A stretch of 32,261 nucleotides of DNA from an uncultured Pseudomonadota bacterium (GTDB taxonomy: Bacteria; Bdellovibrionota_B; Oligoflexia; Oligoflexales; Bog-1112), in the NCBI GenBank assembly GCA_937896265.1, contig CALBMD010000224.1:1-32261 (forward strand), given 5' to 3'. Shown here one piece after another: positions 8,665 through 32,212 of the stretch. The notes under the pieces are model-generated. The model saw only the letters and a program-made list of their open reading frames with translations, was not told the DNA's origin and made no database searches. Position 1 is the first letter of the stretch, and each line of letters opens with the position of its first letter. Made by a program: the position numbers and the translations under genes.

Positions 8665-8995
8665 TTAAATCCTCCTCAATGCTTTTGAGCATTTTTGCTA
8701 CTCTACTCTTTTGTTCTGGTAACAAATCTTCAGATTCATTCTTCACTATGAGAAAAATGAAGAAAATTTTGTCCGCTTTTGCGAAATCCTTATAAAAGAC
8801 TCTGGCTCCGCCTCGTTTACCTCGGCCTGAAGCAGGAACTCTGATTTTTCTTAGCCCGTGGGTCCCTTTAATTACAACGCCAGCATCGGGGGATGCTAGA
8901 AGAGTTCTCTGTAAAGTTCTTAGGTCTTCTTCGCTTAGCTTGGCTTCAGTCCATAACTGCCTGAAAATACTGGTTTCGATGAACTCTCGTATCAT
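8657..8995 (-). CDS. higB: HigB-2-like (RelE superfamily) toxin
   Basis: GTHGLRKIRVPASGRGKRGGARVFY...FFIFLIVKNESEDL closely follows the Vibrio HigB-2-type signature GTGGLRKIRV...GKGKRGG.R.IYY. The operon is toxin-first. Confidence 0.85.
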   Translation of the reverse strand: MIREFIETSIFRQLWTEAKLSEEDLRTLQRTLLASPDAGVVIKGTHGLRKIRVPASGRGKRGGARVFYKDFAKADKIFFIFLIVKNESEDLLPEQKSRVAKMLKSIEEDLNG

Positions 8996-9027
8996 AGACG
9001 ATCTCCTAAAGTCCTAAATAATAGTAG

Positions 9028-9042
9028 TCCTAAAATTTAGGA
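9028..9042. promoter_or_regulatory. dyad operator candidate upstream of higBA
   Basis: TCCTAAA-A-TTTAGGA is a perfect inverted repeat. Extra TCCTAAA half-sites occur at 9004-9010 and 9012-9018. Confidence 0.45.
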
Positions 9043-9077
9043 TAGTCAAGAGATATCCGTCGAATCGTTGCTCAATT

Positions 9078-9113
9078 ATTTAGAATTATACTTTCACACT
9101 CACACTATATAGA
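9078..9113 (+). promoter_or_regulatory. conserved 36-bp promoter-like element, copy C
   Basis: ATTTAGAATTA-N12-CACACTATATAGA lies 40 bp upstream of the gpW-like ATG. Confidence 0.5.
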
Positions 9114-9153
9114 AACGAATTAGAAAGTGATTTTCACCCGGAGCTTGCTGGAA

Positions 9154-9354
9154 ATGCCTTCGATCGAAAAACAATTAAAGACGCTAAAAGCAGCATATGC
9201 CTCCGGGGTAAATCGCGTTCGTTTTGGTGACCAAGAGATCACCTATAAGACAGAAGAAGAAATGCGACGCATCATAGAAAGGCTGGAAAGACAGCTAAAT
9301 GGCGCGCATAAGATCAAGTTTGTTACGCCACGATTTTCAAAAGGTTTAGATTGA
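9154..9354 (+). CDS. head-tail joining protein, lambda gpW-like
   Basis: The 66-aa product reads LKTLKAAYASGVNRVRFGDQEITYKTEEEMRRIIERLERQL, which fits the gpW pattern. It sits between terL and the portal as in lambda. The ORF is open from GTG 9127. Confidence 0.7.
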   Translation: MPSIEKQLKTLKAAYASGVNRVRFGDQEITYKTEEEMRRIIERLERQLNGAHKIKFVTPRFSKGLD

Positions 9355-10751
9355 GCTTCATTGACTCTGCCATTGAAAGGATTTCACCTGCTTTCGCTTT
9401 ACGGCGCGAGATAGCTAGACGCAAGCTATTTGCTGTAAGAGCTTTCGAGGGGGCATCTCTTTCGCCAAGGATGGATAGATGGGGTCTTGCCTCCTATAAG
9501 GATACCTATAAAGACCGCAAATATCTTAGGCAGCGGGCTAGATATCTCGTTGATAACAACCCTTATGCCGCAAGAGCCTTAGCAACTTTGTCCTCTTATA
9601 CGATCGGCAAGGGAATTATCCCGCATATTGATGATAGCGCAAAAGCTATATCAATATTTGAGCGTAGCCTAAAGCATTGGGCTGATAGCGAAGCTTGCGA
9701 CGTCGAAGGCTACACTAATCTCTATGGCCTTCAAGCACTCATTGTGAAAAATCTCATTGTCGACGGCGAGGTTTTCGTCCAGCGGGTGTTCGACAAATCG
9801 GCAATCATTCCTATTAAGCTGCGTCTTATTGAGGCCAGCAAGCTTGACGAGACTAAAAGCACCAATGATGGGAAAATCCAGCACGGTATTGAATACGCTG
9901 GCAATGGCCAGATAGCAGCCTACTGGTTTGCCAGCGACGAAGCGCAAGAAAGTAAAAGAGTCGATGCCGATGATATAGCTCATGTCTTTCGCAAGGATCG
10001 CGCTGGCCAGAGCCGTGGTGTGAGCTGGTTTGCTCCGATTCTTACCCGCCTCAAAGACTTCGACGATTTCGAAGATGCAGAGCTGTTACGGCAAAAACTA
10101 TCGGCTTCGATTGTCGGGGTTTTCCGCGACCTCGAAGCGCAAGGCGATGATTTTGGTGAGAAGTCCTCAATACCTAAAGAAATTAAGCCTGGTTCGATTT
10201 TCGAGGCTCCTGCTGGCCAAACTATCGAATTTTTTGCCCCACCTGCACCAGCGGGAAGCAGTGCCTATATTACTCACATCAAAATGACGTTGGCGATTGG
10301 CCTTGGCATCCCTTATATGCTGCTGGCTGGCGACTATAGCAATTCCAATTTCTCTTCTTCGCGCCTATCGATGCTTAACTTCTATAAATACATAGATCAG
10401 ATCCAGTCATTAGTGTTGATCCCTACATTTTGTAACCCGGTGGCGCGCTGGTTTGAAGAGGCCTGCTCTTTAAAAATGCAGGCACCACCTCTAAAAATGG
10501 CTTGGACGCCGCCCAAGAAGGACCTCACAGACCCGATTAAAGAAATCGAAGCGATGCGACGCACCGTCGAGGCTGGCTTTTGCGCTCATCAAGACGTGAT
10601 CCGAGAATTGGGTGAAGACCCAGAAGACGTCTATCAGCGCATCGATACGTCTAACAAATTGATCGATCAAAAAGGATTTTCGTTCTCAACAGATTATCGC
10701 AACAAGAAGGAATTCCAAGGTGAAAATAAGATCACTCAGTCGCGAAGCTAG
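9351..10751 (+). CDS. portal protein, lambda (gpB) family
   Basis: RARYLVDNNPYAARALATLSSYTIGKGIIP and GVSWFAPIL are characteristic of Phage_portal_2. The TTG start overlaps the gpW stop. Confidence 0.9.
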   Translation: MSFIDSAIERISPAFALRREIARRKLFAVRAFEGASLSPRMDRWGLASYKDTYKDRKYLRQRARYLVDNNPYAARALATLSSYTIGKGIIPHIDDSAKAISIFERSLKHWADSEACDVEGYTNLYGLQALIVKNLIVDGEVFVQRVFDKSAIIPIKLRLIEASKLDETKSTNDGKIQHGIEYAGNGQIAAYWFASDEAQESKRVDADDIAHVFRKDRAGQSRGVSWFAPILTRLKDFDDFEDAELLRQKLSASIVGVFRDLEAQGDDFGEKSSIPKEIKPGSIFEAPAGQTIEFFAPPAPAGSSAYITHIKMTLAIGLGIPYMLLAGDYSNSNFSSSRLSMLNFYKYIDQIQSLVLIPTFCNPVARWFEEACSLKMQAPPLKMAWTPPKKDLTDPIKEIEAMRRTVEAGFCAHQDVIRELGEDPEDVYQRIDTSNKLIDQKGFSFSTDYRNKKEFQGENKITQSRS

Positions 10752-12531
10752 TTTTTTGCCACAAAGCATTGACCGCGAGCGCCGCACAGTGGAAGTGGTT
10801 TGGTCGACTGGGGCAAGGGTCTTGCGGTCTGATTTCATGTCAGGTCCCCATTATGAGGAGCTGTCGCTTGACCCTAAGCATGTTGATCTAAGGCGCTTTA
10901 ACTCAGGGGCGCCGGTGGTTGACAATCATAAAACCTGGAGCCTGAAAGACCAGATTGGTGTCGTAGAAAGGGCCTGGATTGATGGGAAAGAGGCGAAAGC
11001 TTTGATTCGCTTCTCCAAGAGAGCCGATGTCCAACCTATCTTTGATGATATTGCTGATGGTGTCTTTCGCAACATTTCAATTGGCTATCGTGTCCTCAAG
11101 GCTGATGAAAGCACTCGCCAAGGGGACAAGATCAAGACCATTACAGCCACCAAGTGGGAGCCATATGAGCTTTCTCTTGTTCTCATTAATGCCGACGCCA
11201 AAGCTCAAGTAAGGAGTAACAAAGTGGAACCAGAATTAGAAGAAAACACCAGCATTGGAATCCCAGAAAACAACCAAGATGTGAAGGAGAAGGAAAAGCT
11301 CAGATGTCGAAGCATCATTGATTTGACGCGCAAATTTTCCATGGAGCAATCCTTCGCTGATACCCTCATTGACAAGGATAAAAGTCTCGATGAAGCTAGG
11401 GAAATAATTCTCGAAGCGCTATCGAATCGTAGCATTGCCCAAGAGATTCGTACTACTTCAATCGAACTGGGACAAGATGAGAGAGACTTCAAACGCTCTG
11501 GCATTGCCAATGCCCTGTTAAATCGAGCTAATCCGGTAAACAAACTCGATGATAATGGTCGCCGATACCGATCCTATTCCTTGCTGGATGTAGCAAAGGA
11601 ATGTGTGGGTGCAAGTTCTAACACTCTCACAAAAGATAGACTAGTTAGTCGCGCCTTTCATAGCACCTCCGACTTTCCCGAGATTCTTGGTAACGCTGCT
11701 CAGCAAAGCCTTATGGCTTCTTATGAGCGCCTGATGCAAAAGCAAAACTTTTGGCCACTAGCTAGAATTAAAAGTGCTCCAGACTTTAGGCCGATGCGAC
11801 GTGTGCGCATCGGTGAGATGCCTTCATTAGCTGAACTCCCTGAAGGAGCAGAATACTCCCATGGCACTCTAGGTGAAAGCGCTGAGGAATACCGGATTTC
11901 TACTTGGGGTAGATCCATCGGTATTACCCGCCAAATGGTTATTAATGACGATCTAGGAGCACTTGATACCTTGAGCAATTGGGGTGGCGCTATTTCGCGG
12001 CTTGAGAGCTTCCTTTTTTGGTCCATCTTTAACGATAACCCAAAAATGGCCGATGGCATTCCTCTATTCGACAAAAAACACGGTAATAAAGCAGAGAATC
12101 CAGTTGAACTCAGCGTTGAGGCACTAGCTGCCGCTAGAATCGCCATGGGCCGTCAGCAAGGGATAGATAAGGGAGAAGGCGATTTTCTCGATCTAAAGCC
12201 AGAATTTTTGATCGTTCCTTTAGAGCTTCAGATGAAAGCTGAGCAACTTTTGAGTCGAGAGGTGCTGCCACTTGATCCGAGCAAGGTAAACCCCTTCAAA
12301 GACGCTTTTACGCCAATTGTAACGAGCAGGATCAAAGATCCTAAGGCTTGGTTCCTCTCAACTTCTAATGAGCAAGGAGTCGACCTTATCGAAATGGCTT
12401 ATTTGGATGGACAACGTGCGCCGTTTATAGAGTGGGAAACCGACTTTAAAACTGACTCGCTGGTGGTTAAAGCGCGCATGGATATCGCAGCTAAAGCCAT
12501 TGATTACCGTGGATTTTACAAAGGAGCTTAA
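10720..12531 (+). CDS. prohead protease / scaffold-like linker / major capsid protein fusion
   Basis: The N-terminal ~170 aa look like an HK97-type prohead serine protease (VVDNHK..., NISIGYRV). A Glu/Lys-rich linker follows. The C-terminal ~330 aa look like a capsid protein ending in DYRGFYKGA. It is a single 603-aa ORF with no internal stop. Confidence 0.8.
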   Translation: MKIRSLSREASFLPQSIDRERRTVEVVWSTGARVLRSDFMSGPHYEELSLDPKHVDLRRFNSGAPVVDNHKTWSLKDQIGVVERAWIDGKEAKALIRFSKRADVQPIFDDIADGVFRNISIGYRVLKADESTRQGDKIKTITATKWEPYELSLVLINADAKAQVRSNKVEPELEENTSIGIPENNQDVKEKEKLRCRSIIDLTRKFSMEQSFADTLIDKDKSLDEAREIILEALSNRSIAQEIRTTSIELGQDERDFKRSGIANALLNRANPVNKLDDNGRRYRSYSLLDVAKECVGASSNTLTKDRLVSRAFHSTSDFPEILGNAAQQSLMASYERLMQKQNFWPLARIKSAPDFRPMRRVRIGEMPSLAELPEGAEYSHGTLGESAEEYRISTWGRSIGITRQMVINDDLGALDTLSNWGGAISRLESFLFWSIFNDNPKMADGIPLFDKKHGNKAENPVELSVEALAAARIAMGRQQGIDKGEGDFLDLKPEFLIVPLELQMKAEQLLSREVLPLDPSKVNPFKDAFTPIVTSRIKDPKAWFLSTSNEQGVDLIEMAYLDGQRAPFIEWETDFKTDSLVVKARMDIAAKAIDYRGFYKGA

Positions 12532-21450: not shown

Positions 21451-21934
21451 TTTAATGCGAGAGACGCTCATCAAGCTCTTTCCTCCAGGGTCGCAAGATA
21501 GCCTAGCCGAAGATCCGAAGGCAATGGCCTTGCTTGATGCTATTGCAAAAGAGTTTGCCGCAGTCTTTGATTTAGCAACCACCGTATTTTCACCACCGCT
21601 TGACCGTCAAAGCCATTTCTTCAGTAGTTGGCAGAAGCTATGCAAAAACCCCGATCCGGTGGCTGCCTTGCAAGCAAAAGGGCATAAAGCCATGGCGCTA
21701 GGACAAGAGTGGTTAGTGAGCAACACCAAGGCGCATTTTCAAAGTATTGTTGGTGCCAACATCGAAATCAAGACAGGCAAAAACACCATTGAATTTATTG
21801 GCCTCAAGAACAAAAAGACGAGTTTACCAAACACCCCATGGGGAAAAGTAGAACGAGACGAGGCGCTAATTAGTCTTATCGAAAAGACTAAACATGCTCA
21901 TGTCACAGCAAAATACAAGGAAAACCATGCATAG
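21440..21934 (+). CDS. tail protein (Mu gp48 / DUF2313-like)
   Basis: The N-terminal LIKLFPPGS motif and the position after baseplate J support the call. Confidence 0.75.
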   Translation: MSHDLMRETLIKLFPPGSQDSLAEDPKAMALLDAIAKEFAAVFDLATTVFSPPLDRQSHFFSSWQKLCKNPDPVAALQAKGHKAMALGQEWLVSNTKAHFQSIVGANIEIKTGKNTIEFIGLKNKKTSLPNTPWGKVERDEALISLIEKTKHAHVTAKYKENHA

Positions 21935-22454
21935 AATAGATGCGACAGGTCACGTAGATAGTCGATTTCGTGATGGCGACAACGAAGGTGCCGAAGTCAT
22001 ACCACCAACAATCCCTGATGCAGCTTGGCTTAATGCCGTTCAAGAGGAGATTGCTTCCATCATTGAAGGGGCAGGTTTGGAATTGGATAAAGCTCAAAGC
22101 AACCAACTTGCCCAAGCATGTAGACTAAAGATTAAAAAAACTATTGAACCAATTCTTGGAGCTATTGATCATCTGAGAAATGATTTATCCTTGCTGGAAA
22201 GAAGGATAAATGACCTTTCAAGGCAACCAGGACCGCAAGGACCAGCTGGCCAAAAAGGTGAGAGAGGGCTTACTGGTCCTAGCTGCATAGCAGAAGTGAG
22301 TCCAAAACTTGACAAATTAGCCCGCGGGGTGCTGTTTGCAATAGCAAATGGTGGTGATAGCTTTTCAGCACAACGCCTGGAATACGGCTTAAAATATATC
22401 ACACATAACGATTTACCACCTATGAGCTCAAAAAATTTTTGGCAAGGCGGATAA
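21927..22454 (+). CDS. short tail fibre protein with collagen-like Gly-X-Y repeat
   Basis: The conserved fibre N-terminus reads HRIDATG...FRDGD...TIPDAAWLNAVQEEIASIIEGAGL. Six G-X-Y triplets (GPQGPAGQKGERGLTGPS) lie at 22230-22283. ATG 21927 follows AAGGAAAA. Confidence 0.75.
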   Translation: MHRIDATGHVDSRFRDGDNEGAEVIPPTIPDAAWLNAVQEEIASIIEGAGLELDKAQSNQLAQACRLKIKKTIEPILGAIDHLRNDLSLLERRINDLSRQPGPQGPAGQKGERGLTGPSCIAEVSPKLDKLARGVLFAIANGGDSFSAQRLEYGLKYITHNDLPPMSSKNFWQGG

Positions 22455-22615
22455 GATTAAACCTCCAAGCAGCACTAGGGTTCAGTCCAATACCAAAGTA
22501 ATGACATGGATTGATATTTCATTTCAATAAATAGCCTTTCACGAATCCACCATCTCCTGTTCCTTACGATTTGAAAAATCAACAAGTCGTATTCCTAGTC
22601 GTTAAGGCCTCAATA

Positions 22616-22655
22616 TGGCTATTTATGCCCAACGCGCCAAAAAGGTCAATTCATC
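22616..22655. repeat. left terminal inverted repeat
   Basis: TGGCTATTTATGCCCAACGCGCCAAAAAGGTCAATTCATC. It contains the last codons and the stop of tnpR. Confidence 0.9.
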
Positions 22656-23293
22656 TCGCCGCAAGACGCTAGGTTGGATGTTGCTACAATAACTGGTTTT
22701 TCTGACATTTCAGAAACTTTTCTCTTTTCCATATGATAGAAGAAAGTGCGCCGCCCGATACCCAAGGATTTGCAAATTTCATTTGCAGTTTTTTTAGTAT
22801 TTTCATATAGCACTTCTGCTTGCTCGAGTTTGCTTGCTGAGACTTTCGGGCGTCCGCCTGTTTTCCCTCGAGCTTTAGCGGCATTTTTGCCATCTTTTAT
22901 GCGTTCTTGCTTTAGCTCTCGCTCCATCTGGGAGATGGCACCCATCATCGATAAGAAAAATCGGCCTGTGGCGTTTTTTGTGCCGATATCTTCACGCAAA
23001 GATACAATATCGACCCCTTGAGCTTCAAATGTTTGTGAGAGCTGGAGAAGGTGAGCCAGAGACCGACTCATTCGGCTAAGCTCAGCCACTACGATGGTGT
23101 CGCCGGGACGGATAAATTCCAAAAGTTTGGTCCACCCTGGTCGGTCAGATTTTATTCCGCTAATTTTATCTTTGAATATTTTCATGCAACCGGCTCTTTC
23201 AAGAAGGTCTATCTGGCTATCAAGATTTTGATCTCGAGAACTAACACGAGCGTATCCGATCTTTTGGTGACCGAAGGTATCTTCTCTCTTCAT
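22646..23293 (-). CDS. tnpR: serine recombinase / resolvase
   Basis: IGYARVSSRDQNLDSQ carries the catalytic Ser motif. Other matches are GDTIVVAELSRMSRS and a C-terminal HTH (TANEICKSLGIGRRTFFY). A ~30-aa C-terminal extension is present. Confidence 0.9.
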   Translation of the reverse strand: MKREDTFGHQKIGYARVSSRDQNLDSQIDLLERAGCMKIFKDKISGIKSDRPGWTKLLEFIRPGDTIVVAELSRMSRSLAHLLQLSQTFEAQGVDIVSLREDIGTKNATGRFFLSMMGAISQMERELKQERIKDGKNAAKARGKTGGRPKVSASKLEQAEVLYENTKKTANEICKSLGIGRRTFFYHMEKRKVSEMSEKPVIVATSNLASCGEMN

Positions 23294-23439
23294 CGAGCAA
23301 AAACCTCTAAAAGTTCGACTTTACGCACTTTGATTTATGCACTAATATTTGCACTCTTAAAAGTATTGTAAGTCCGTTTGTAAAATTGACAAAGCACTAA
23401 GTGCAAATAGCTATACTTTTTGCACCATCGAAAGCCCAG
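23294..23439. promoter_or_regulatory. candidate res site and divergent promoters
   Basis: The 146-bp tnpR-tnpA gap holds six YGCAC(T) motifs (23324, 23338, 23350, 23394, inverted at 23400, and 23421), including the dyad GCACTAAGTGC. Confidence 0.4.
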
Positions 23440-26400
23440 CATATGAGTTCCGATTCCCGTCGACTGCAAATTTTGACTAACGGAGAAATTGATGATCTCT
23501 ATGCTTTACCAAGTTTTACAGACGAAGATAGGCTTTTATATTTCGATTTAAGTGCAGTGGAGAAAGAGGCTGTTGATGCTACCTATACTATATCAGTGGG
23601 AGCTCACCTGATTCTACAACTAGGATATTTCAAAGCTAAGAGACAAGTTTTTCGGTATAAGCAAGAAAGTGTTCTTGACGATCTACGCTATATCATCGAG
23701 CTTTATTTTCCTGGAACTGATTTGGCAGATCTCAAGATCCCTTCCAAACCAGTTCGTCTTGAGCAAAAAAAAGCAGTCCCTAAAATTTTTGATTATCGAC
23801 TTTGCGATACTAAAATTCAGCTTGAGTTGGAACAGAAGGCACAAAGGCTTGCAATGCTTTCAACTCAGCCAAGCTATATTCTTCGTGAGGCAATGCAATA
23901 TCTTGCACACCAACGTATAGTCGCGCCAAGCTATCGTTTTATGCAGGAGATGATTGGTCGGGTGATGGCCGCTGAACGCAGGAGAATTACCCAATTGCTT
24001 GGGAAGGCTTTGACGACGGCGCATGAAAAACAACTCGATGAACTTTTAAAGGCCGATGAAGGCATGTATCGGATCACCGCATTCAAGCATGAAGCTATGG
24101 ATTTTAGCTATAAAGAACTGAGATCTGAAGTGGAGCGTCGCAAATTCTTTCAACCACTGTACGAGTTTTCCCAGCAATTTCTTGAAACATCAGGAATTTC
24201 AAGTGAAAGTGTCAAATACTACGCGTCTCTGGTCAAATTCTATACTGTCTTTAAGCTACAGCGTATGGCTATATCCACGACACGTCTATATCTTATATGC
24301 TTTGCCTATCATCGCTTTCGTCAGATCAATGATAGTCTGATCGACGCTTTTATCCATTGGGTAGATAAATACGAAAACCAAGCCAAAATAGCTGCAGAAG
24401 CAGCTATGCACAATGCACTTGCGGATGCCTCTGAAAACCTTAAGGCAGCTGGTCAAGTTCTCAATTTATTCGTTGATCTTTCAATACCAAGTGACGCTTC
24501 CTTTACTATGGTAAAGGAAAAAGCATTCTCTATGCTTGATCCGGAACGATTTTCACAGGTATCGGACTATATGCGTAATATTGCTTTTGATAAGGAGGCT
24601 TTCGTTTGGTCTTATTGGACAAAGCTATCACTGACTTTCAAAAGGAATCTACGACAATTATTTACCGACTTGTCCTTTGCTGGCCGTGTGGAAGATGCAC
24701 CGTTATTAGAGGCTGTCACATTCTTGCAAAATATTCTTAGGCAAGGAAAGTCGCTAAGACAGGTTGATCCGTCTACATTCCCGATTGCATTGATTCCAAA
24801 AAATTTGCAGCGGCACCTATTTGTCACGATAGAAGATGAAAAAGACAAGAAGCTGGTCGTTGATCGATACGAGTTCTTAGTTTATCGGTGCCTACGCAAA
24901 GCGCTAGAATCTGGCGATGTATTTGTCGGAGGAAGCACTGAGTATCGGCGTTTTGAAGACGACTTGATTAGCGATATTCGCTGGCAAAACAAGGATTTCA
25001 TTTTGAATGATATTGGTTCACCTGTTTTGCTGACACCAATCCGAGAAACTCTGAATGATTTTCAAATTTCTCTTGAAAAAAAGATAACGGCTGTTAATCA
25101 ACGTATTGCCAATGGACTCAACAAACATATCAAGATCATAGGCTCTGACGATAAACGTCGATGGAAGCTAATCCACCCAAGCACTGAAGAGCCCGTCAGT
25201 CATCAATTTTATGATCAACTGCCTGGAATTTCTCTCCCAGATCTCTTATGGTTTGTCGCAAAAAACACCGGATTTTTTAGCTCCTTCACTCATGTTTTAG
25301 ACCGATATGTCAAGCAAAATGCTGAGCCTCACGAAATTCTTGCCTGTATTGTTGCCATGGGTACCAATATGGGATTATCAAAAATGGCCGAAGTTTCCGG
25401 CCTGACTTCTTCATCGTTGATAACTACGACACGTAATTACGTGAGACTAGAAACACTACACGAAGCTAACAATGCAATTAGCAATGCCATCGCGGCTCTC
25501 CCGCTATTCAAGCTCTTCAATATTCATGACTCAATCCATTCTAGTAGTGATGGCCAGCGAATGGAAACACAAATAAATACAATCAATTCTCGCTATTCAC
25601 CAAAATATTTTGGATTGCATAAAGGCGTCAGCAGCTATACGTTAATAGCCAATCATGTGCCTATTAACGCTAAGATTATTGGGACTCACGAACACGAGAG
25701 TCACTATGTTTTCGATTTACTTTACAATAATACCTCGGATATCAAACCAGAACGCCATTCTACGGATACGCATGGGACCAACCAAGTAAATTTCTGGATT
25801 TTGCACACGTTTGGCTACGATTTTGCTCCGAGATATCGTGATCTGCACAAGAAAATGAGCTCTCTTGTTGGTTTTAAGCACCCAAGCCAATATGACTCCC
25901 TAATTAAGCCTTCTCGAAAGGCAAACCTAGAATTGATTGAAAGCGAATGGCCGAATATTCAACGAATCATGGCATCTTTGGCACAAAAAGATGTGACACA
26001 GGCCACGATAGTTCGAAAGCTAAGCAGCTATAGCAGACAAAACAAAACGATGAAAGCCCTTTGGGAGCTAGAAAATATATGTCGCACCCTATATATTCTT
26101 GACTTTATCGACGACGTAGAACTACGACAGAACGTGCAAAAGGCGCTCAACCGAGGTGAAGCTTATCACCGATTCCGGCGCGCAATTGCTTATGTAAATG
26201 GTGGAAAATTTCACGTTAAAACCTAAGCTGAGCAACAGATATGGAACGAATGCTCCCGACTAATTGCCAACTCAGTGATCTATTACAACACCTTGCTACT
26301 TTCTCGAGTACATAAGCAAAAAGAAGACGCAGGCAACCACGAAGCAATGTCTGTCATTCAAGGAATGTCACCTGTCGCTTGGCAACACGTCAATCTTTTT

Positions 26401-26487
26401 GGGTCATTCGAATTCAATCCAAATGTACCTAAAGTGGATATCGAAGCTTTAGTTGCCATTTTCGCGGACAAGATCTTTTTAGGATAG
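23440..26487 (+). pseudogene. tnpA: Tn3-family transposase interrupted by one in-frame TAA
   Basis: The N-terminus MSSDSRRLQILTNGEIDDLYALPSFTDEDRLLYF is typical. An in-frame TAA at 26224-26226 is followed in the same frame by AEQQIWNECSRLIANSVIYYNT...SPVAWQHVNLFGSFEF, the conserved Tn3 TnpA C-terminus. Confidence 0.85.
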
Positions 26488-26516
26488 ATTTATGAAGAGT
26501 GCCGTTTGGACGGTGG

Positions 26517-26556
26517 GATGAATTGACCTTTTTGGCGCGTTGGGCATAAATAGCCA
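26517..26556. repeat. right terminal inverted repeat
   Basis: Exact reverse complement of 22616-22655. Confidence 0.9.
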
Positions 26557-26808
26557 ATTTCAGACAAATCTTTTTAACGCCAGATCGGATAAATAGCTTG
26601 GACAAGAAGGGTTTTAGCCAAGATGACGGTTTTTGTACGTAATCCTTACCGCTCCCCAAACCCTCATCTTTGCTGTTTCTAGAATTTAGATGCGTATGCC
26701 CTGCCTGCTAACCCCCCCCCACTTCGGATTTTACGCTGTCGCAACGTGTTGATTTTATTTGATATAATTTTTAGCAAAAACTGGGGTTTTTTGGTCATGT
26801 TTTCCCCC

Positions 26809-26862
26809 TTGACAAGTACGCTAAATAACGTACTATTTAAAAAGTACTTTAATTAACGTACT
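26809..26862 (+). promoter_or_regulatory. promoter and GTAC-dyad operator of the RelE/XRE toxin-antitoxin operon
   Basis: TTGACA (26809-26814), 16 nt, then TACTAT. The dyad AGTACG-N8-CGTACT (26815-26834) is followed by AGTACT and a second AACGTACT. An extended -10 TGATATAAT at 26760-26768 is a second candidate promoter. Confidence 0.5.
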
Positions 26863-26875
26863 AGGGGGCCGATGC

Positions 26876-27157
26876 ATGCTTTATGTGGTGAAGGTTTCGA
26901 AACAAGCAGAAAAGGAGCTTAGAAAACTTCCACGCCACATAATAGAAGCGCTTATGTTATGGGTCCATGATGTAGAAACTTCAGGGCTCGAAATTGTCCG
27001 AAAGATTCCGGGCTACCATGATGAGCCTCTAAAAGGGGATCGAAAAGGCCAAAGATCAATAAAACTCAATCGTTCCTATAGAGCGATATATGTTGTTAAT
27101 AGTGATGGCACTATTGATTTTGTTGAGGTTAAGGAAGTTAACAAGCACAAGTATTAA
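26876..27157 (+). CDS. RelE/ParE-superfamily toxin
   Basis: The 93-aa product reads KQAEKELRKLP...GYHDEPLKGDRKGQRSIKLNRSYRAIYVV...VNKHKY, the RelE-type signature. The RBS is AGGGGG. Confidence 0.85.
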   Translation: MLYVVKVSKQAEKELRKLPRHIIEALMLWVHDVETSGLEIVRKIPGYHDEPLKGDRKGQRSIKLNRSYRAIYVVNSDGTIDFVEVKEVNKHKY

Positions 27158-27171
27158 AGGGAGAAGCTGAC

Positions 27172-27486
27172 ATGAAAAAATCTGACGCTATGCAGCTGCT
27201 TGAAAATATAGCTGGTGAAGAGTTTACATTTGCAACGATGATGCGCGTTCTTCGCCAAAGAAAGGAAATGACCCAAGAACAGTTCGGTAAACTTTTAGGT
27301 GTCCAAAAAGCCTATATTTGCGATATTGAACGCGGTAGACGTAATATCACTATCGACCAGGCAATCAAGTTCGCAGCTAAATTGGAAGATGTGGTATCCA
27401 TGAAACAGTTCATAGAAATGGCTGTCAGCTATCAACTCAAGAAGAATGGGCTGGACTATGATGCTGTTTTGGTAGCGAACGGGTAG
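27172..27486 (+). CDS. XRE-family HTH antitoxin
   Basis: MTQEQFGKLLGVQKAYICDIERGRRNITIDQAIKFAAKL is a canonical XRE HTH. It lies 14 nt downstream of the toxin gene. Confidence 0.8.
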   Translation: MKKSDAMQLLENIAGEEFTFATMMRVLRQRKEMTQEQFGKLLGVQKAYICDIERGRRNITIDQAIKFAAKLEDVVSMKQFIEMAVSYQLKKNGLDYDAVLVANG

Positions 27487-27700: not shown

Positions 27701-27973
27701 CTACCCTAGGGTTTTCATTGCAATTTTCTCTATTATCCTGGATCGAGAAAGTCTATGTTTACCAGCCGCCTGTTCAATAAGTTCAATTACATTTGGATCT
27801 AATGTAAAGGTCATTGCTACACGTCGCGGCCTTTTTTCGGCCTCTTGAAACCAATCAGAAGTATCCAGTTCATCTTTACTTATAGGCGAGCTACTCACTT
27901 GGGCATCTGGTGGATCAACAAAATCGTCAAACACCTCAACTCTTGTCGGTACAGGTTTCTTTTGCTTTGACAT
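27701..27973 (-). CDS. ribbon-helix-helix centromere-binding protein (ParG-like)
   Basis: The 90-aa protein lies directly downstream of parA (parA stop 27974, its own start 27973). It has an acidic, disordered N-terminus and a C-terminal RHH (VAMTFTLDPNVIELIEQAAGKHRLSRSRIIEKIA). Confidence 0.7.
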   Translation of the reverse strand: MSKQKKPVPTRVEVFDDFVDPPDAQVSSSPISKDELDTSDWFQEAEKRPRRVAMTFTLDPNVIELIEQAAGKHRLSRSRIIEKIAMKTLG

Positions 27974-28747
27974 TTATATATTCTCCATAATGTGAGTAGC
28001 AAATCTCATGTAGGTCTTAGCAACGATCGAAGATGGGAAAGCTTCTCCAAGCGCTTGGTTCTGTCGCTGAGCTTCGAGAACTTTCACAGAGTGTGGAATA
28101 ATCCAATCTCTTAAAAACAATTCTTCCTTCTTCATATTATTTAAGGCTTCTTTAACAACCTTGGCATTTGCCTTTTCATACCCTGTAAGCAAGACACCTA
28201 TCTCTTTCAGAGAGTTGTTCGCCCTTTCTTTAACTCGATCAGCGAATATACGGGCATTGCTAACACCTATTTCCGAATACTCCGACAGGTCCGTCACAAG
28301 CAGGTAGTGCGTCGAAGCAATCAATGCGTTGCGGGTTTCTATACCCAGTACAGGGGGAGTGTCTATCACGATAAAATCAAAGAAACCACCCGTCCTATCC
28401 ACTGCTCTTTTAAGAATGCGGTCCCTATCTATTGAGGCCGATAGTTCCTGTTCTAAGGTTGTTAACCGTCGATCCGCTGGCACCAATATTAAATTACCCC
28501 AATTTCCGCTTGGCTTGACCACGACTTTTTTAACAGGTATGTCGCCTTCGCTCTTAAAAAGATCGTAAGAGCTACTCTTGTGGTCTGCCCGGCCGGTTAG
28601 GTGGATTGTTGAACTAGCCTGCTTGTCTATATCAATCAGAAGAACCTTGTAGTTCTTCGCAAGATAGTAAGCCAACTGAATAACACTCGTAGTTTTACCA
28701 CAGCCACCCTTTTCATTTAGTACAGTTATCACCCGCGTATTTGGCAT
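27974..28747 (-). CDS. parA: ParA partition ATPase (small, type Ib-like)
   Basis: It has the deviant Walker A NEKGGCGKTT and Walker B FIVIDTPP. At 257 aa it lacks an N-terminal HTH. Confidence 0.92.
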   Translation of the reverse strand: MPNTRVITVLNEKGGCGKTTSVIQLAYYLAKNYKVLLIDIDKQASSTIHLTGRADHKSSSYDLFKSEGDIPVKKVVVKPSGNWGNLILVPADRRLTTLEQELSASIDRDRILKRAVDRTGGFFDFIVIDTPPVLGIETRNALIASTHYLLVTDLSEYSEIGVSNARIFADRVKERANNSLKEIGVLLTGYEKANAKVVKEALNNMKKEELFLRDWIIPHSVKVLEAQRQNQALGEAFPSSIVAKTYMRFATHIMENI

Positions 28748-28968
28748 ACATACTCCTGATCGTCAAGCTACGCTTAATTGTACTCTGGAACCATTTATTT
28801 TTGCAATTAATCGCCGACAGGTTCAAAATATCATGCATTATGATATGATGATTGTATCATGTACATAACATGACACTTTACTTTATGGTACACAAGGACT
28901 TAAAATATAATCAATTTCCCATTTAACTTGAAGTTGCCAACAAATCATATATTTTGTGGAGCTAATAT
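28748..28968. promoter_or_regulatory. divergent promoter region / candidate partition site
   Basis: AT-rich gap between parA and the KfrA-like gene. It contains the dyad TATCAT-GCATT-ATGATA (28829-28845) and ATG(N)GTACA motifs at 28859 and 28885. Confidence 0.35.
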
Positions 28969-30327
28969 ATGCGTACTGGACCTGTAACGTACCAAGACGT
29001 ACGAGAGATATGCGATAAGATTAAGTGTACAAAAAAAAATATTACAACACGCAGGATACGAGAAGAACTACAACGCGGATCTTTAAGCACTATCAGCAAG
29101 CATTTAAAAGCTTGGCAAGCTACACGTACAAATGTGTACGAAATCAAAAAGATACACCGTGACACAGACGTTTTGAATGGCGATGTACGATCGTACACAA
29201 CCACCAAGAAACAACCACCTAGTCATACCAACATGACCGGCACCAATGTACACGATATAAAAGAAGCCAATCTTAGCGTACACACTAAACAACACCCTGT
29301 ACATCCACAAACTGGCGACCAAAAGGCCATGGCTGACATGGTACAAGAGGTTGGAAACCTGGCGGCGACATTTACGGAAGCTACAAAGCAATCTGAAGCC
29401 GTCCAAGCTAATCTTGCCGAAAAATCACAGGCTGCTGCCATTTCAGAAGTCAAAGCTGCGAACCAAAAGGCCCTTACCGACATGGCGGAGGAGATTAGAA
29501 ATCTAGTGGCAGCATTTACGGAAGCTACAGAGCAATCTGACGCTGACCAAGCTAATCAGGGCAAAAAGATACAGGCCGCTATATCCGAAGTTAAATCGGA
29601 TGTACAAGAATCTATATGTACACTAGCGAACGAGGTTGCAAAGCTAGCAACACTCAAGGCTCCTGATGAACAAACCGCCAGTAAGAAGGTAGATATCGCT
29701 CCCGAACACTTTGCTTGGCAGGATTTCTCGCTTCTTATCACAAGCCCCTCAGCCTTTTTTCTCTCCGTCGCCGTCTTAGCCATAACTGGCCTTCTAGTGT
29801 TTTTCCAAACCTCCGCCTATATTACGGGCGGCCTTGGCAGTGCCTCACTACCCATCGCCGCCGTTTGCGAGCTTAGCTTAGTTGCTCTTACTATCTTTTT
29901 TTCAGCCAAAATGCAGAAAAAAACCGCCGCCTTCTTGTTTCTTGCTGTATTCGGCTATGTCTTAGCCACCATGAGCTATGATCTTGCCTCAACATCGATC
30001 CAAGAGGTCACGACAGCGACTACAAATAATAAGCAGACTGCCTCAATTGAAACCCAGATAGAAACCTATATCGAAGCGTTTCAAACCGCGACAAAAAAGC
30101 AGGAAAATGGCAATATGGCTAAATGGTCCTCGAAAATAGATGATGCCAAAAAAGAACTTACCAACTTGCAGACAACGGCAAAAAGCAGCGATACGGCACG
30201 ACTAATTGAAGCAAAATGCTCGGGGATGATCGTACTTAGAGCGTTGCTCATGTTGCTCAACGCTTTCTTTGTACATGCACTCATCGGGATTTTTAAGAGA
30301 AACAACGAACAAGTCATTGCAATATAG
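28969..30327 (+). CDS. KfrA-N-like DNA-binding protein with repeat-containing helical middle region and C-terminal transmembrane segments
   Basis: The N-terminus VTYQDVREICDKI...TTRRIREELQRGSLSTISKHLKAW fits the KfrA_N pattern. The middle holds two ~47-aa repeats. The C-terminus has four hydrophobic helices (e.g. AFFLSVAVLAITGLLVFF, LPIAAVCELSLVALTIFF, AAFLFLAVFGYVLATM, VLRALLMLLNAFFVHALIGIF). Confidence 0.7.
   Translation: MRTGPVTYQDVREICDKIKCTKKNITTRRIREELQRGSLSTISKHLKAWQATRTNVYEIKKIHRDTDVLNGDVRSYTTTKKQPPSHTNMTGTNVHDIKEANLSVHTKQHPVHPQTGDQKAMADMVQEVGNLAATFTEATKQSEAVQANLAEKSQAAAISEVKAANQKALTDMAEEIRNLVAAFTEATEQSDADQANQGKKIQAAISEVKSDVQESICTLANEVAKLATLKAPDEQTASKKVDIAPEHFAWQDFSLLITSPSAFFLSVAVLAITGLLVFFQTSAYITGGLGSASLPIAAVCELSLVALTIFFSAKMQKKTAAFLFLAVFGYVLATMSYDLASTSIQEVTTATTNNKQTASIETQIETYIEAFQTATKKQENGNMAKWSSKIDDAKKELTNLQTTAKSSDTARLIEAKCSGMIVLRALLMLLNAFFVHALIGIFKRNNEQVIAI
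29325..29600 (+). repeat. tandem duplication of ~141-144 bp (two copies) inside the KfrA-like ORF
   Basis: CATTTACGGAAGCTACA recurs at 29369 and 29513. The protein repeats are KAMADMVQEVGNLAATFTEATKQSEAVQANL... and KALTDMAEEIRNLVAAFTEATEQSDADQANQ... Confidence 0.7.
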
Positions 30328-30358
30328 TCTAAACTACTCAACTTGGGGGGGGATTTTG

Positions 30359-32110
30359 ATGACGACTTTAGGTGCAGTAAACCTTGCAGAGAAGATTTTA
30401 ACGCGTACCAAAGAGAAAGAAATTAGGTACCATGAAGCCAACCCTACAAAACCACCAATTGAATACAAACCTTTTCCCACTGTCGAAACAGCAGAACTGC
30501 CTGAAGGCAACCATCAATTACAAGCAATAGAGCCATGTGCCGCCTGTACAGATAAGTTTTTGATGGCAGAAGGACAGGAAGGCACCATCATTGCAACGAC
30601 CTGTACTGTCTGCGTACCATTTAACAGCAACTCATGGGCGGTTGATGCAAAAATTCATGCAATAGGAGCCGCAGAAGTACCTAATAGGTATTTCAAAGCT
30701 CTGACTAGAGAAAACATTCGCCCTGAAATCTTAGAGGTAGCTGAGTCACTAATTTCTCAACAAAACAAAAACCCATTCCTTTTTTTCCACGGCGGTATCG
30801 GAACTGGTAAAACCCATTCTGCAGCACATATAATGCTAAACTATCTACAAAAGACGAATCTCTCTTGTTTTTATATCCCAGTATATGAATATCTAGAATT
30901 GAATCGTAACCGTAGCGCGTACGGTTTTGAGCACGGAAAACTAAGATCAAATACACAACATGCTTTTAAGCATGTAAGAGATCGATCAAAAAATGTTGAT
31001 TTACTGATACTCGATGAACTTGGGCAAGAAGTTCTTACCACAGATCAGCAAAAATCAGTGTTTGATTTGTTAGACTCAAGATATAGGTCAAACAAGCCAA
31101 CAATCTTGATCTCTAATCATTGTGAAAACAAGGCGATTAGTTTAGATGGTAAGATTCTATCTGAGCTCATTGGATCAAGGATTGCATCGAGAATTAAGTC
31201 CGCAAAGCTTGTGTACTTTAGCGGCGAAGATTATAGAGTAACAAAAGAACATAGCGAAGTTATTACTGAAGAAGAGGCTGAGAAATTTAAAATGAATGAG
31301 AAGATACTTACGCATAGCGATGACGAACACCAGATTATGACTTGGGTCACCAGAATATCTGCTTTTAAAACGGTTTCCACCCAAGAAAGGAAAGATCTAA
31401 CTTATATCTATAATGGAGAGGAGAGAGATTCTGATCGACGCGAGCCTTCTATTTATGAAGATATTTGGGTAAAGGGTGACAGCTTAATAATTCACGGCCC
31501 AATTTGTGACCAAGAAGATGAAAAGCTCTACTGTTGGTTGGTCAAGGAGCTAACAAATCAACATACTAAAGGACACCTAGGGCTAACGATAAATCTTAGT
31601 TTTCGCTATATTCTTCAAGGTCTTGGCTTATCAAGCAGCAGCGGCGAAAACATCAAAAGAGTACGTAGGCAACTTGATCGATTAAACAGGATGTCTCTTT
31701 CTTTTTCCAATGCAAAAGGACACAAATGGTCTGGCCCCTTAATAACAGATCTTGAGCAATTTGGTCAAAGCTCAGACCAAAAATTGAAAATAAGCTTTAG
31801 TCGATGCATGATCCCCTTTTACAGACTTAATGCCTACACAACGTTTGATAGAATAACAGCTAGAAAACTAAAAGGCGATAGTGCAACATTGTACTTTTTT
31901 TATATATCTCACTCAGAATCTAGACCTATTACATTAAATCACTTCAAAGGACTTTTAGCCCTTAGCGACGAAATAGATCATAAAGAAACGATGAGACGTG
32001 CCAAAAAAATGTTAGATAATTTGATAAAAGCAAGCGTACTAGACCCAAAAGAATCTTTTATTAAAGGTGGTAAAATCTTTACTCAATTACTATGCCCCAT
32101 GCCTCAATAA
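30359..32110 (+). CDS. DnaC/IstB-like AAA+ ATPase fused to a RepA/TrfA-like initiator domain
   Basis: Motifs are CAAC...CTVC near the N-terminus, Walker A FFHGGIGTGKTH, Walker B LLILDELGQE and ILISNH. The C-terminal ~270 aa (SSSGENIKRVRRQLDRLNRMSLSF...ATLYFFYISH...) resemble plasmid RepA/TrfA initiators. ATG 30359 lies 6 nt after a G8 tract, and the ORF is open from 30269. Confidence 0.7.
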   Translation: MTTLGAVNLAEKILTRTKEKEIRYHEANPTKPPIEYKPFPTVETAELPEGNHQLQAIEPCAACTDKFLMAEGQEGTIIATTCTVCVPFNSNSWAVDAKIHAIGAAEVPNRYFKALTRENIRPEILEVAESLISQQNKNPFLFFHGGIGTGKTHSAAHIMLNYLQKTNLSCFYIPVYEYLELNRNRSAYGFEHGKLRSNTQHAFKHVRDRSKNVDLLILDELGQEVLTTDQQKSVFDLLDSRYRSNKPTILISNHCENKAISLDGKILSELIGSRIASRIKSAKLVYFSGEDYRVTKEHSEVITEEEAEKFKMNEKILTHSDDEHQIMTWVTRISAFKTVSTQERKDLTYIYNGEERDSDRREPSIYEDIWVKGDSLIIHGPICDQEDEKLYCWLVKELTNQHTKGHLGLTINLSFRYILQGLGLSSSSGENIKRVRRQLDRLNRMSLSFSNAKGHKWSGPLITDLEQFGQSSDQKLKISFSRCMIPFYRLNAYTTFDRITARKLKGDSATLYFFYISHSESRPITLNHFKGLLALSDEIDHKETMRRAKKMLDNLIKASVLDPKESFIKGGKIFTQLLCPMPQ

Positions 32111-32212
32111 ACAGGTTTTGTTTTCCCCTCTCCCAACAGCAACAAAGGTATGACCCGATGACATGGTGAACACTTTTGTCCGACGACATGGTTTACACTC
32201 CCTCCTTGAGGA

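Follow-up and report, generated by a model that had tools for sequence, protein, structure and literature searches.

The rep gene at positions 30359..32110 on the plus strand (stop codon counted) of the window, by which we mean the whole 32,261-nucleotide contig CALBMD010000224.1, encodes a 583-residue fusion of a predicted zinc-ribbon-like element, a DnaC-type AAA+ domain, and a Rep module with two winged-helix domains (WH1-WH2). The gene product is probably a phage-plasmid replication initiator, a single polypeptide that both recognises the origin and recruits the helicase. Origin binding by an initiator and loading of the helicase are normally the work of separate proteins. Both modules are of known kinds and the new part is their fusion. 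The analysis itself established what the two domains are, that their fusion is conserved, that relatives carry iteron arrays, and that the gene has a probable phage-plasmid setting.

The sequence-only reading had described one ORF (open reading frame) of 583 residues with a CxxC pair, an ATPase core, and initiator-like segments, and every quoted motif was found where it had been placed. The ORF listing features a single open frame that spans 30269..32110 in the window. The ATG at 30359 is preceded by a GGGGGGG run and falls at the position of Met1 in each of the nine full-length relatives, and the protein is therefore taken to start there and to have 583 residues. The motifs are CAAC at residues 60-63, CTVC at 82-85, GGIGTGKTH at 145-153, LLILDELGQE at 215-224, LISNH at 250-254, RRQLDRLNRMS at 436-446, GDSATLYFFYISHS at 506-519, and LDNLIKASVL at 552-561. 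The earlier worry that resequencing might split the ORF into two genes is removed by an independent Logan assembly (locus L004, run SRR6231146), which encodes the identical 583-residue protein, and by dozens of homologues in which the ORF is whole. The nine relatives have 532-588 residues and are 42-49% identical to the window protein over 88-100% of its length (E 1e-119 to 1e-175). The full-length alignment with these relatives has a mean column identity of 59% and joins the two halves without a break. Since the same protein is present in an independent assembly and both modules occur together in 42 of 160 retrieved proteins, the rep ORF is genuine and is not a chance ORF, an assembly artefact, or a gene pair joined by error.

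The N-terminal half is, judged from its sequence, an AAA+ domain of the initiator/loader group that is predicted to be catalytically intact. It carries a predicted Cys4 zinc-ribbon-like element at residues 60-85 (30536..30613, plus strand) with C60, C63, C82, and C85, which takes the form CxxC...CxC in the relatives and is modelled by AlphaFold2 (AF2) as a beta-hairpin ahead of the ATPase. A Cys4 element N-terminal to the ATPase is also the arrangement of DnaI. The ATPase belongs to the DnaC/DnaI/IstB/DnaA initiator-loader group and covers residues ~100-296 (30656..31246, plus strand). It features a Walker A lysine (K151), the Walker B residues D219 and E220, the sensor I residue N253, and two arginines, R274 and R278, that are paired with R216 and R220 of DnaC; these residues are invariant across 10 family sequences. 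The pairing with E. coli DnaC matches GTGKTH to GTGKNH, LLILDELG to LLVIDEIG, ISN to LTN, and GSRIASRI to GERVMDRM.

Searches with hidden Markov models (HMMs) from Pfam place residues ~128-295 in IstB_IS21 with 33.4 bits (cut-off 24.1) and in Bac_DnaA with 27.5 bits (cut-off 23), and PHROG 50, annotated as a DnaC-like helicase loader, matches the window protein with an E-value of 5e-28. The top NCBIfam models are PRK08116, PRK06835, DnaA, DnaC, and DnaI, all of which score far under their curated cut-offs, so the protein is no orthologue of any characterised loader. A sequence search of the PDB found E. coli DnaC as the best match, followed by Aquifex DnaC, IstB, DnaI, and DnaA; Cdc6 was matched by sequence with an E-value of 0.006 across 57 residues. 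The first full-length AF2 model, built from a 10-sequence alignment, is confident for residues 63-296, and a Foldseek search with it ranks Aquifex DnaC (3ecc) first with a TM (template modelling) score of 0.75 and an E-value of 1.5e-7, followed by IstB, E. coli DnaC, DnaI, and DnaA. In this 10-sequence prediction two helices (175-185 and 190-212) stand between the strand at 170-174 and the Walker B strand at 215-219, a candidate for the helical insertion (175-212) that is specific to initiators and loaders. These comparisons suggest that the AAA+ half is nearest to phage and bacterial DnaC-like loaders and is an orthologue of none that has been named. The DnaC/IstB-type AAA+ core that had been recognised from the letters is thus borne out by the IstB_IS21 score, the match to DnaC 3ecc, and the invariant catalytic residues.

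The C-terminal half is predicted by modelling to have the WH1-WH2 fold of iteron initiators, and the sequence comparisons indicate that it is homologous to proteins of the Rep_3/TrfA/RPA/RepC type. A short acidic linker at residues 297-318 (31247..31312, plus strand) is followed by the iteron-initiator module at residues ~319-583 (31313..32107, plus strand), which consists of an N-terminal subdomain, WH1 (~385-490), and WH2 (~498-575). Homology to Rep modules starts at residue ~315-320, so the two modules appear to be linked by just ~20 acidic residues. A long disordered linker across residues 297-374, which were unmodelled in the 10-sequence AF2 prediction, was considered and rejected; the segment is folded confidently in a later model built from 69 sequences and TrfA-like homology runs from residue ~320. 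This second AF2 model, of residues 296-583, has a pLDDT (predicted local distance difference test score) of 95.1 and a pTM (predicted TM score) of 0.92. Its best 36 PDB matches are all iteron initiators (E 1.7e-7 to 2e-5). They include domains 2-3 of RctB (E 1.7e-7, 302 columns, TM 0.53), many complexes of RepE54 with its iteron, 1rep among them (TM ~0.6), and a complex of Rep with single-stranded DNA of the DNA unwinding element. A sequence search of the PDB with the profile of the C-terminal family found nothing meaningful, and fold comparison alone worked.

Pfam matches in relatives agree with this fold. The C-terminal halves of 4 of 6 relatives pass the cut-off of the Pfam model Rep3_N, which describes WH1, with 25.4-29.2 bits against 22.4; these matches cover the equivalent of residues 388-507 and are accompanied by weaker RPA matches. 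An exhaustive HMMER search with the C-terminal profile against 1.84 billion representatives retrieved 154 proteins. Among the weaker matches of this profile are 53 standalone proteins of 250-330 residues, of which 35 match Pfam TrfA, 32 RPA, 21 Rep3_N, and 14 RepC. The 53 proteins were chosen by similarity, and their Pfam labels are independent of that choice. The C-terminal set and the standalone set of ~300 residues were aligned by hhalign with a probability of 99.9% over 231 columns. In the TrfA-like set, the counterparts of the window segments RRQLDRLNRM and ...LYFFYISHS, which the sequence-only reading had singled out, are the signatures SLxRL and WLYxFYxSH. The TrfA HMM (Pfam PF07042) has no match in the window protein, which is linked to TrfA solely through remote standalone homologues. 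A C-terminal domain of the plasmid-initiator type, as first proposed, is upheld by the modelled WH1-WH2 fold and by Rep3_N above its cut-off in relatives, and parsing of the AF2 model into domains likewise returned an initiator fold with high pLDDT. The suggested check with domain HMMs came out in part, with IstB_IS21 passing in the window protein and Rep3_N passing in the relatives, while the window protein stays under every Pfam initiator threshold.

The fusion is conserved in a small unannotated family. In a local hmmsearch with the N-terminal profile, a DnaC-like module was found directly before the Rep module in 42 of the 160 retrieved proteins, which answers the call for a database survey of the same fusion. 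Most of the 42 are representatives of clusters at 50% identity, and some have Rep modules that are just 20-28% identical to that of the window; this number of proteins and this divergence indicate that the fusion is old and diversified. Rep modules are also found behind other N-terminal enzymes (E 1e-82 to 1e-106). Two proteins of ~900 residues, P0015 and P0018, feature Toprim and AAA_25/DnaB_C before the Rep module, and three others, P0017, P0019, and P0159, feature a DnaB-like helicase alone. Taken together with the loader fusions, the helicase fusions show an N-terminal partner that in every case is a helicase or an ATPase of the helicase-loader type. Among the indirect arguments that the N-terminal half may supply helicase activity at the origin, this constancy is the strongest. 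No paper on such a fusion was found in the literature, which is not proof that it is undescribed, and none of the four cluster representatives that were looked up carries a name.

The family is sparse in the collections that were searched. The tblastn searches of PLSDB plasmids and of GenBank phages returned matches to the AAA+ half alone, with no record reaching 80% coverage of the protein, and a scan of IMG/VR found no relative. A scan of JGI metagenomes found two loci and the GTDB genomes contained one MAG (metagenome-assembled genome). This bog MAG, labelled 'Deltaproteobacteria bacterium bog_1112', is the sole genome-bin link. Four of its contigs (L005-L008; PLEQ01000277, 368, 421, 269) each carry a distinct member of the rep family, which could mean that several phage-plasmids reside together or that a common composition brought the contigs into one bin. 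Among viral structures in BFVD, the Rep module is matched best by A0A8S5V5R6 (E 2.3e-8, 331 columns), an uncharacterized protein of 584 residues from the gut contig 'Myoviridae sp. ctrEx11'; going by its length, it may be another instance of the fusion, carried by a gut phage.

Past rep, at a distance of 45 bp from the stop codon, the window has two 20-nt direct repeats (32155..32199, plus strand) with a spacing of 25 bp, which are candidate first iterons. Their sequences are CCGATGACATGGTGAACACT at 32155-32174 and CCGACGACATGGTTTACACT at 32180-32199, with the type CCGAYGACATGGT (2 matches against 0.01 expected). No iterons were found upstream of or within rep in the window. In relatives, tandem 22-bp iterons start no more than ~130 bp past the rep stop codon in seven loci that represent six independent elements; the loci are L002/L003, L008, L009, L010, L012, and L006, the last with the start of one array. 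The unit is CCCTAATCGGGAGGTTTCRTCC in L008, where five perfect and two degenerate copies are followed by an AT-rich stretch, and CAATCACGGGAGGTTTCATCCC in L002/L003, where the array contains an assembly gap and is also the place at which L003 ends. L005 represents this same element, flanks included, with its array collapsed to one copy of this unit. The units are CTAATCGGGAACTATCATGTTC in L010 (at least 3 copies), CCAGATCGAGCACTTTCATGTT in L012 (at least 5 copies), and TTTTCGGGGCATAACGTGTTCC in L009 (at least 5 copies), where the Rep protein is a helicase-Rep fusion. An AT-rich stretch follows the iterons wherever the sequence of the relatives continues. The window contig stops 62 bp past the second repeat, the L004 contig stops inside the second repeat, the L006 contig stops as such a repeat starts, and the L001 contig ends 35 bp past the stop codon. 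These recurrent contig breaks past rep are the behaviour expected of a tandem array in short-read assemblies.

Because their position matches that of the iteron arrays of the relatives, the window repeats are read, with moderate confidence, as candidate first iterons of a truncated array. The sequence-only reading had offered two possible origins, a GTAC array upstream of the gene and repeats downstream at 32147-32188. The downstream repeats are favoured by the 22-bp arrays that relatives carry in this place; they exist, although the coordinates were slightly off and the actual ones are 32155-32199. The upstream array fared less well; it lies in the parA-kfrA region and relatives do not have it beside their Rep genes. 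Beyond the repeats, the segment 32200-32261 features a perfect hairpin, CCCTCC-TTGA-GGAGGG, and then an ORF (MPWTERTKMKERV...) that runs off the contig. This ORF may mark the beginning of an insertion sequence or of the gene that follows, and if it is an insertion sequence the origin region could be interrupted. In L002 (~11030-11041) and L005 (~11664-11672) the iterons are directly followed by TCATCCACA and then by the AT-rich stretch. The E. coli DnaA-box consensus is TTATCCACA, to which TCATCCACA is an 8/9 match.

The element that carries rep is best described, from its gene content, as a myovirus-like phage-plasmid of an uncultivated host, because it combines tailed-phage structural genes with ParA, KfrA, and Rep and no integrase was seen. 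The phage genes of the window include small and large terminase subunits, a lambda-type portal, a protease-capsid fusion, a sheath, a tape measure, a Mu-like baseplate, and a short tail-fibre ORF. The window also carries a Tn3-family transposon, a RelE/HigA-like pair, and a DNA methyltransferase. Neither a helicase nor an integrase gene was found among the ~20 larger window ORFs that were scanned. The terminase is at most 34% identical to anything in GenBank phages, and the contig is open at both ends. A block in the window consists of the small protein and ParA on the minus strand, then KfrA and Rep on the plus strand. L001 and L002/L003 have a ParA/kfrA-like/Rep block beside phage genes, and L009 has ParA and Rep beside phage tail genes. 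L002 is among the viral population contigs of Stordalen Mire (PMC6786970).

From homology and context we infer iteron binding, the identity of the window repeats as iterons, ATP-driven oligomerisation, and DnaB loading. The WH1-WH2 module (residues ~319-583) would bind the iterons that start just downstream of the gene, and this binding would set several N-terminal modules side by side near the AT-rich unwinding element. The AAA+ modules would then oligomerise with ATP, as DnaC and DnaA do, and once assembled they would engage the melted single strand and the host DnaB and load the helicase. Such work is otherwise done by host DnaA and DnaC together with a plasmid Rep, and a loader attached covalently would solve the problem in another way.

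Several results weigh against this proposal. The window protein alone matches no initiator HMM, and its C-terminal half has no Pfam match even at an E-value of 5. The scores stay far below the orthologue-level cut-offs of NCBIfam for DnaC (32.2 against 357), DnaI (25.3 against 228), IstB (34.9 against 200), and PRK08116 (68.3 against 189). The window shows just two repeats, spaced by 25 bp and not 22, and their likeness to the iterons of the relatives is loose; with the contig end 62 bp on, neither an array nor an AT-rich element can be seen, and the repeats may instead be part of another feature, for example a mobile-element end. Sequence comparison with Pfam and NCBIfam revealed neither a DnaI_N domain nor the N-terminal helicase-binding domain of DnaC, and the AAA+ domain could melt DNA or control oligomerisation instead of loading a helicase. 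In a rival explanation the AAA+ domain is an ATP-dependent oligomerisation and origin-melting engine, comparable to domain III of DnaA or to Orc1/Cdc6, and host factors bring the helicase. The absence of a recognisable helicase-binding domain, the Bac_DnaA match above its cut-off, DnaA structures at E-values of ~2e-7, and a full-length model that is colinear with archaeal Orc1 (2v1u, 454 columns) and with ORC subunits fit this explanation. We consider it rather unlikely, however, as the nearest matches in sequence and structure are loaders (PHROG 50, PRK08116, DnaC 3ecc, and 6qel) and the sister proteins swap the AAA+ module for helicases and not for other melting devices. The melting and loading roles are mutually compatible and a single AAA+ module may have both.

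The phage genes of the window would also suit a lytic-phase replication protein, a fused analogue of lambda O and P, with the prophage maintained by another replicon or by integration functions in the missing part of the genome. The nearest relatives of the AAA+ half are phage DnaC-like loaders and the contig is incomplete at both ends, both of which fit this explanation; we nevertheless regard it as improbable. The rep gene is in a conserved maintenance block of ParA, small partner, and kfrA-like gene in the window, L001, and L002/L003 (L009 features ParA with other neighbours), the sole recombinase among the ORFs scanned, none of which is an integrase, lies within the Tn3-type transposon, and control by iterons is typical of low-copy plasmid maintenance. 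Additionally, one protein may serve both phases. The least credible explanations, both very improbable, are that the protein is an IstB-like transposition helper with a DNA-targeting domain or that two genes were fused by a sequencing error. The name of the best Pfam match, IstB_IS21, and the transposons in the window recall a helper, but no IstA-type transposase adjoins the gene in any locus examined and the C-terminal module has an initiator fold beside iterons. The identical ORF in an independent assembly and the 42 proteins with both modules contradict an artefact. The helper and frameshift-artefact readings were rejected on these locus neighbours, on L004, and on the both-module proteins, and an initiator that recruits the host helicase is retained as the probable function.

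The window Rep module has the WH1-WH2 fold in common with Rep_3 proteins (RepE, RepA, pi), TrfA of RK2, RPA, RepC of IncQ, and domains 2-3 of RctB. In the comparison with TrfA-like proteins, RQLxRLxRM of the window family resembles SLxRL, and GDSxxxYxFYxSH resembles LAxWLYxFYxSH. As in iteron plasmids, the relatives of the window protein have 22-bp iterons and an AT-rich stretch by the gene. Known iteron initiators have ~250-400 residues and no ATPase, and they rely on host DnaA/DnaC or on direct contacts with DnaB (PMC4980987). The window protein differs from them by the covalent addition of an N-terminal AAA+ domain of the loader type. With DnaC, DnaI, phage loaders, and IstB it shares the Walker A and B motifs, sensor I, and the arginine motifs, and the model suggests that it may also have their helical insertion between beta2 and beta3; however, these loaders have ~180-310 residues and are without a module that binds double-stranded DNA sequence-specifically.

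The layout of an initiator-clade AAA+ domain followed by a C-terminal domain that reads origin repeats is shared with DnaA and with archaeal Orc1/Cdc6, whose C-terminal DNA-binding domain is a winged helix. The window AAA+ domain is, however, nearer to DnaC, and its DNA-binding part is a double winged helix of the plasmid-Rep type and not the single winged helix of Orc or domain IV of DnaA. In the Foldseek search with the full-length model Orc1 (2v1u) is at rank 41 (E 1.8e-4, root-mean-square deviation 16.8), and DnaC, IstB, and DnaA rank first. The resemblance to Orc is a matter of domain shuffling or convergence, not of membership. P4 alpha combines a primase, a helicase, and an origin-binding domain, N15 RepA is a primase-helicase, and lambda uses a separate origin binder (O) and loader (P). 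In these systems, too, the domain that binds the origin is linked to a helicase supplier or acts together with one; the likeness drawn here is one of architecture. Sister proteins of the family carry Toprim and a DnaB-like helicase on the Rep module. In contrast, the window enzyme is a loader-type AAA+ domain and not a helicase or primase, and its candidate origin is after the gene and not inside it.

A more far-reaching proposal is that the protein is a bacterial counterpart of Orc1/Cdc6, in which one chain reads repeats by its winged helices, forms an AAA+ oligomer, melts the origin, and loads the helicase independently of DnaA and DnaC, with the Rep module serving as a portable origin-targeting cassette on loaders, helicases, and primase-helicases. 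We put this forward tentatively, as possible but doubtful. Iteron plasmids are the textbook case of a split between origin recognition by Rep and helicase delivery by DnaA/DnaC or by Rep-DnaB contacts, as with TrfA-44, and this split of initiation between Rep and host limits host range. A covalent Rep-loader, if true, would amount to a compact device for initiation, possibly independent of the host, and would repeat in bacteria the layout, AAA+ first and winged helix second, of the initiators of archaea and eukaryotes. It would offer a natural test bed for how a DNA-bound initiator array positions AAA+ loader modules on an unwinding element, and the Rep module on loaders, helicases, and primase-helicases would form a clean natural domain-swap set for comparison. 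The gene is also a marker for a replicon type of soil and freshwater phage-plasmids that lacks annotation and would escape the plasmid and phage typing schemes now in use.

Upstream of rep, at a distance of 31 bp, is kfrA (28969..30327, plus strand), which encodes a KfrA_N DNA-binding domain, a repeat region, and ~4 hydrophobic segments. The hydrophobic, membrane-span-like segments are at residues 261-279, 289-307, 319-337, and 423-441, and the gene has an internal 128-nt direct repeat (29309-29436 and 29453-29580). L001 and L002 feature a protein of 362-369 residues in this position with an N-terminal DNA-binding region and hydrophobic segments; KfrA_N is matched in that of L001 only. The KfrA-type protein could serve the replicon as a DNA-binding partner anchored in the membrane. 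Divergent from kfrA-rep are the genes for a ParA-type partition ATPase (27974..28747, minus strand) and its 90-residue partner (27701..27973, minus strand). The partner is weakly characterised by a faint CopG_antitoxin match in its L001 equivalent and by phrog_18157 (E 7e-4), and is possibly a ribbon-helix-helix centromere-binding protein or repressor.

A GTAC(A) cluster at 28700..29350, to which no strand is assigned, is a candidate centromere or operator. This segment has 16 GTAC sites against 0.95 expected (p ~1e-14), and GTAC is depleted across the window (62 sites against 122 expected from composition). The clustered sites are spread over the parA-kfrA intergenic region and over kfrA, where they occupy several reading frames, and the nearest relative, L001, has a similar cluster in the same place (8838-9287). 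The cluster is a DNA-level signal. It lies by the promoters of parA and kfrA, which diverge, and this position speaks more for a centromere or operator than for a Rep-binding origin. The latter role was rejected; the array lies in the parA-kfrA control region and in kfrA, as it does in L001, and the iterons of the relatives are always downstream of rep. The GTAC pattern may also be tied to the methyltransferase of the element or to restriction avoidance. A separate pair of 27-nt direct repeats at 26809-26863 contains four GTAC sites at an exact spacing of 14 bp. It is located upstream of a RelE/HigB-like toxin gene (26876-27157), which is followed by the gene for a helix-turn-helix antitoxin (27172-27486), and is probably the operator of this toxin-antitoxin pair.

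The Tn3-family transposon occupies 22609-26563 and has 53-nt terminal inverted repeats that are 91% complementary. It encodes a serine recombinase/resolvase (22646-23293, minus strand) and a Tn3 transposase of 941 residues (23401-26226), and a megablast search of PLSDB plasmids found no near match to it. The short tail-fibre ORF (186 residues, 21894-22454) lies immediately before the transposon, whose insertion may have truncated the tail-fibre gene. At the start of the window a frame that is open from base 1 (1-1323) encodes at least 434 residues with an acidic C-terminal part and matched neither Pfam nor PHROG; should the element be circular, this frame would sit just past the origin. The protease-capsid fusion is encoded by a single ORF of 603 residues at 10720-12531, which combines a head-maturation protease with the major capsid protein and matches phrog_4523, 'major head and protease protein', with an E-value of 3e-188.

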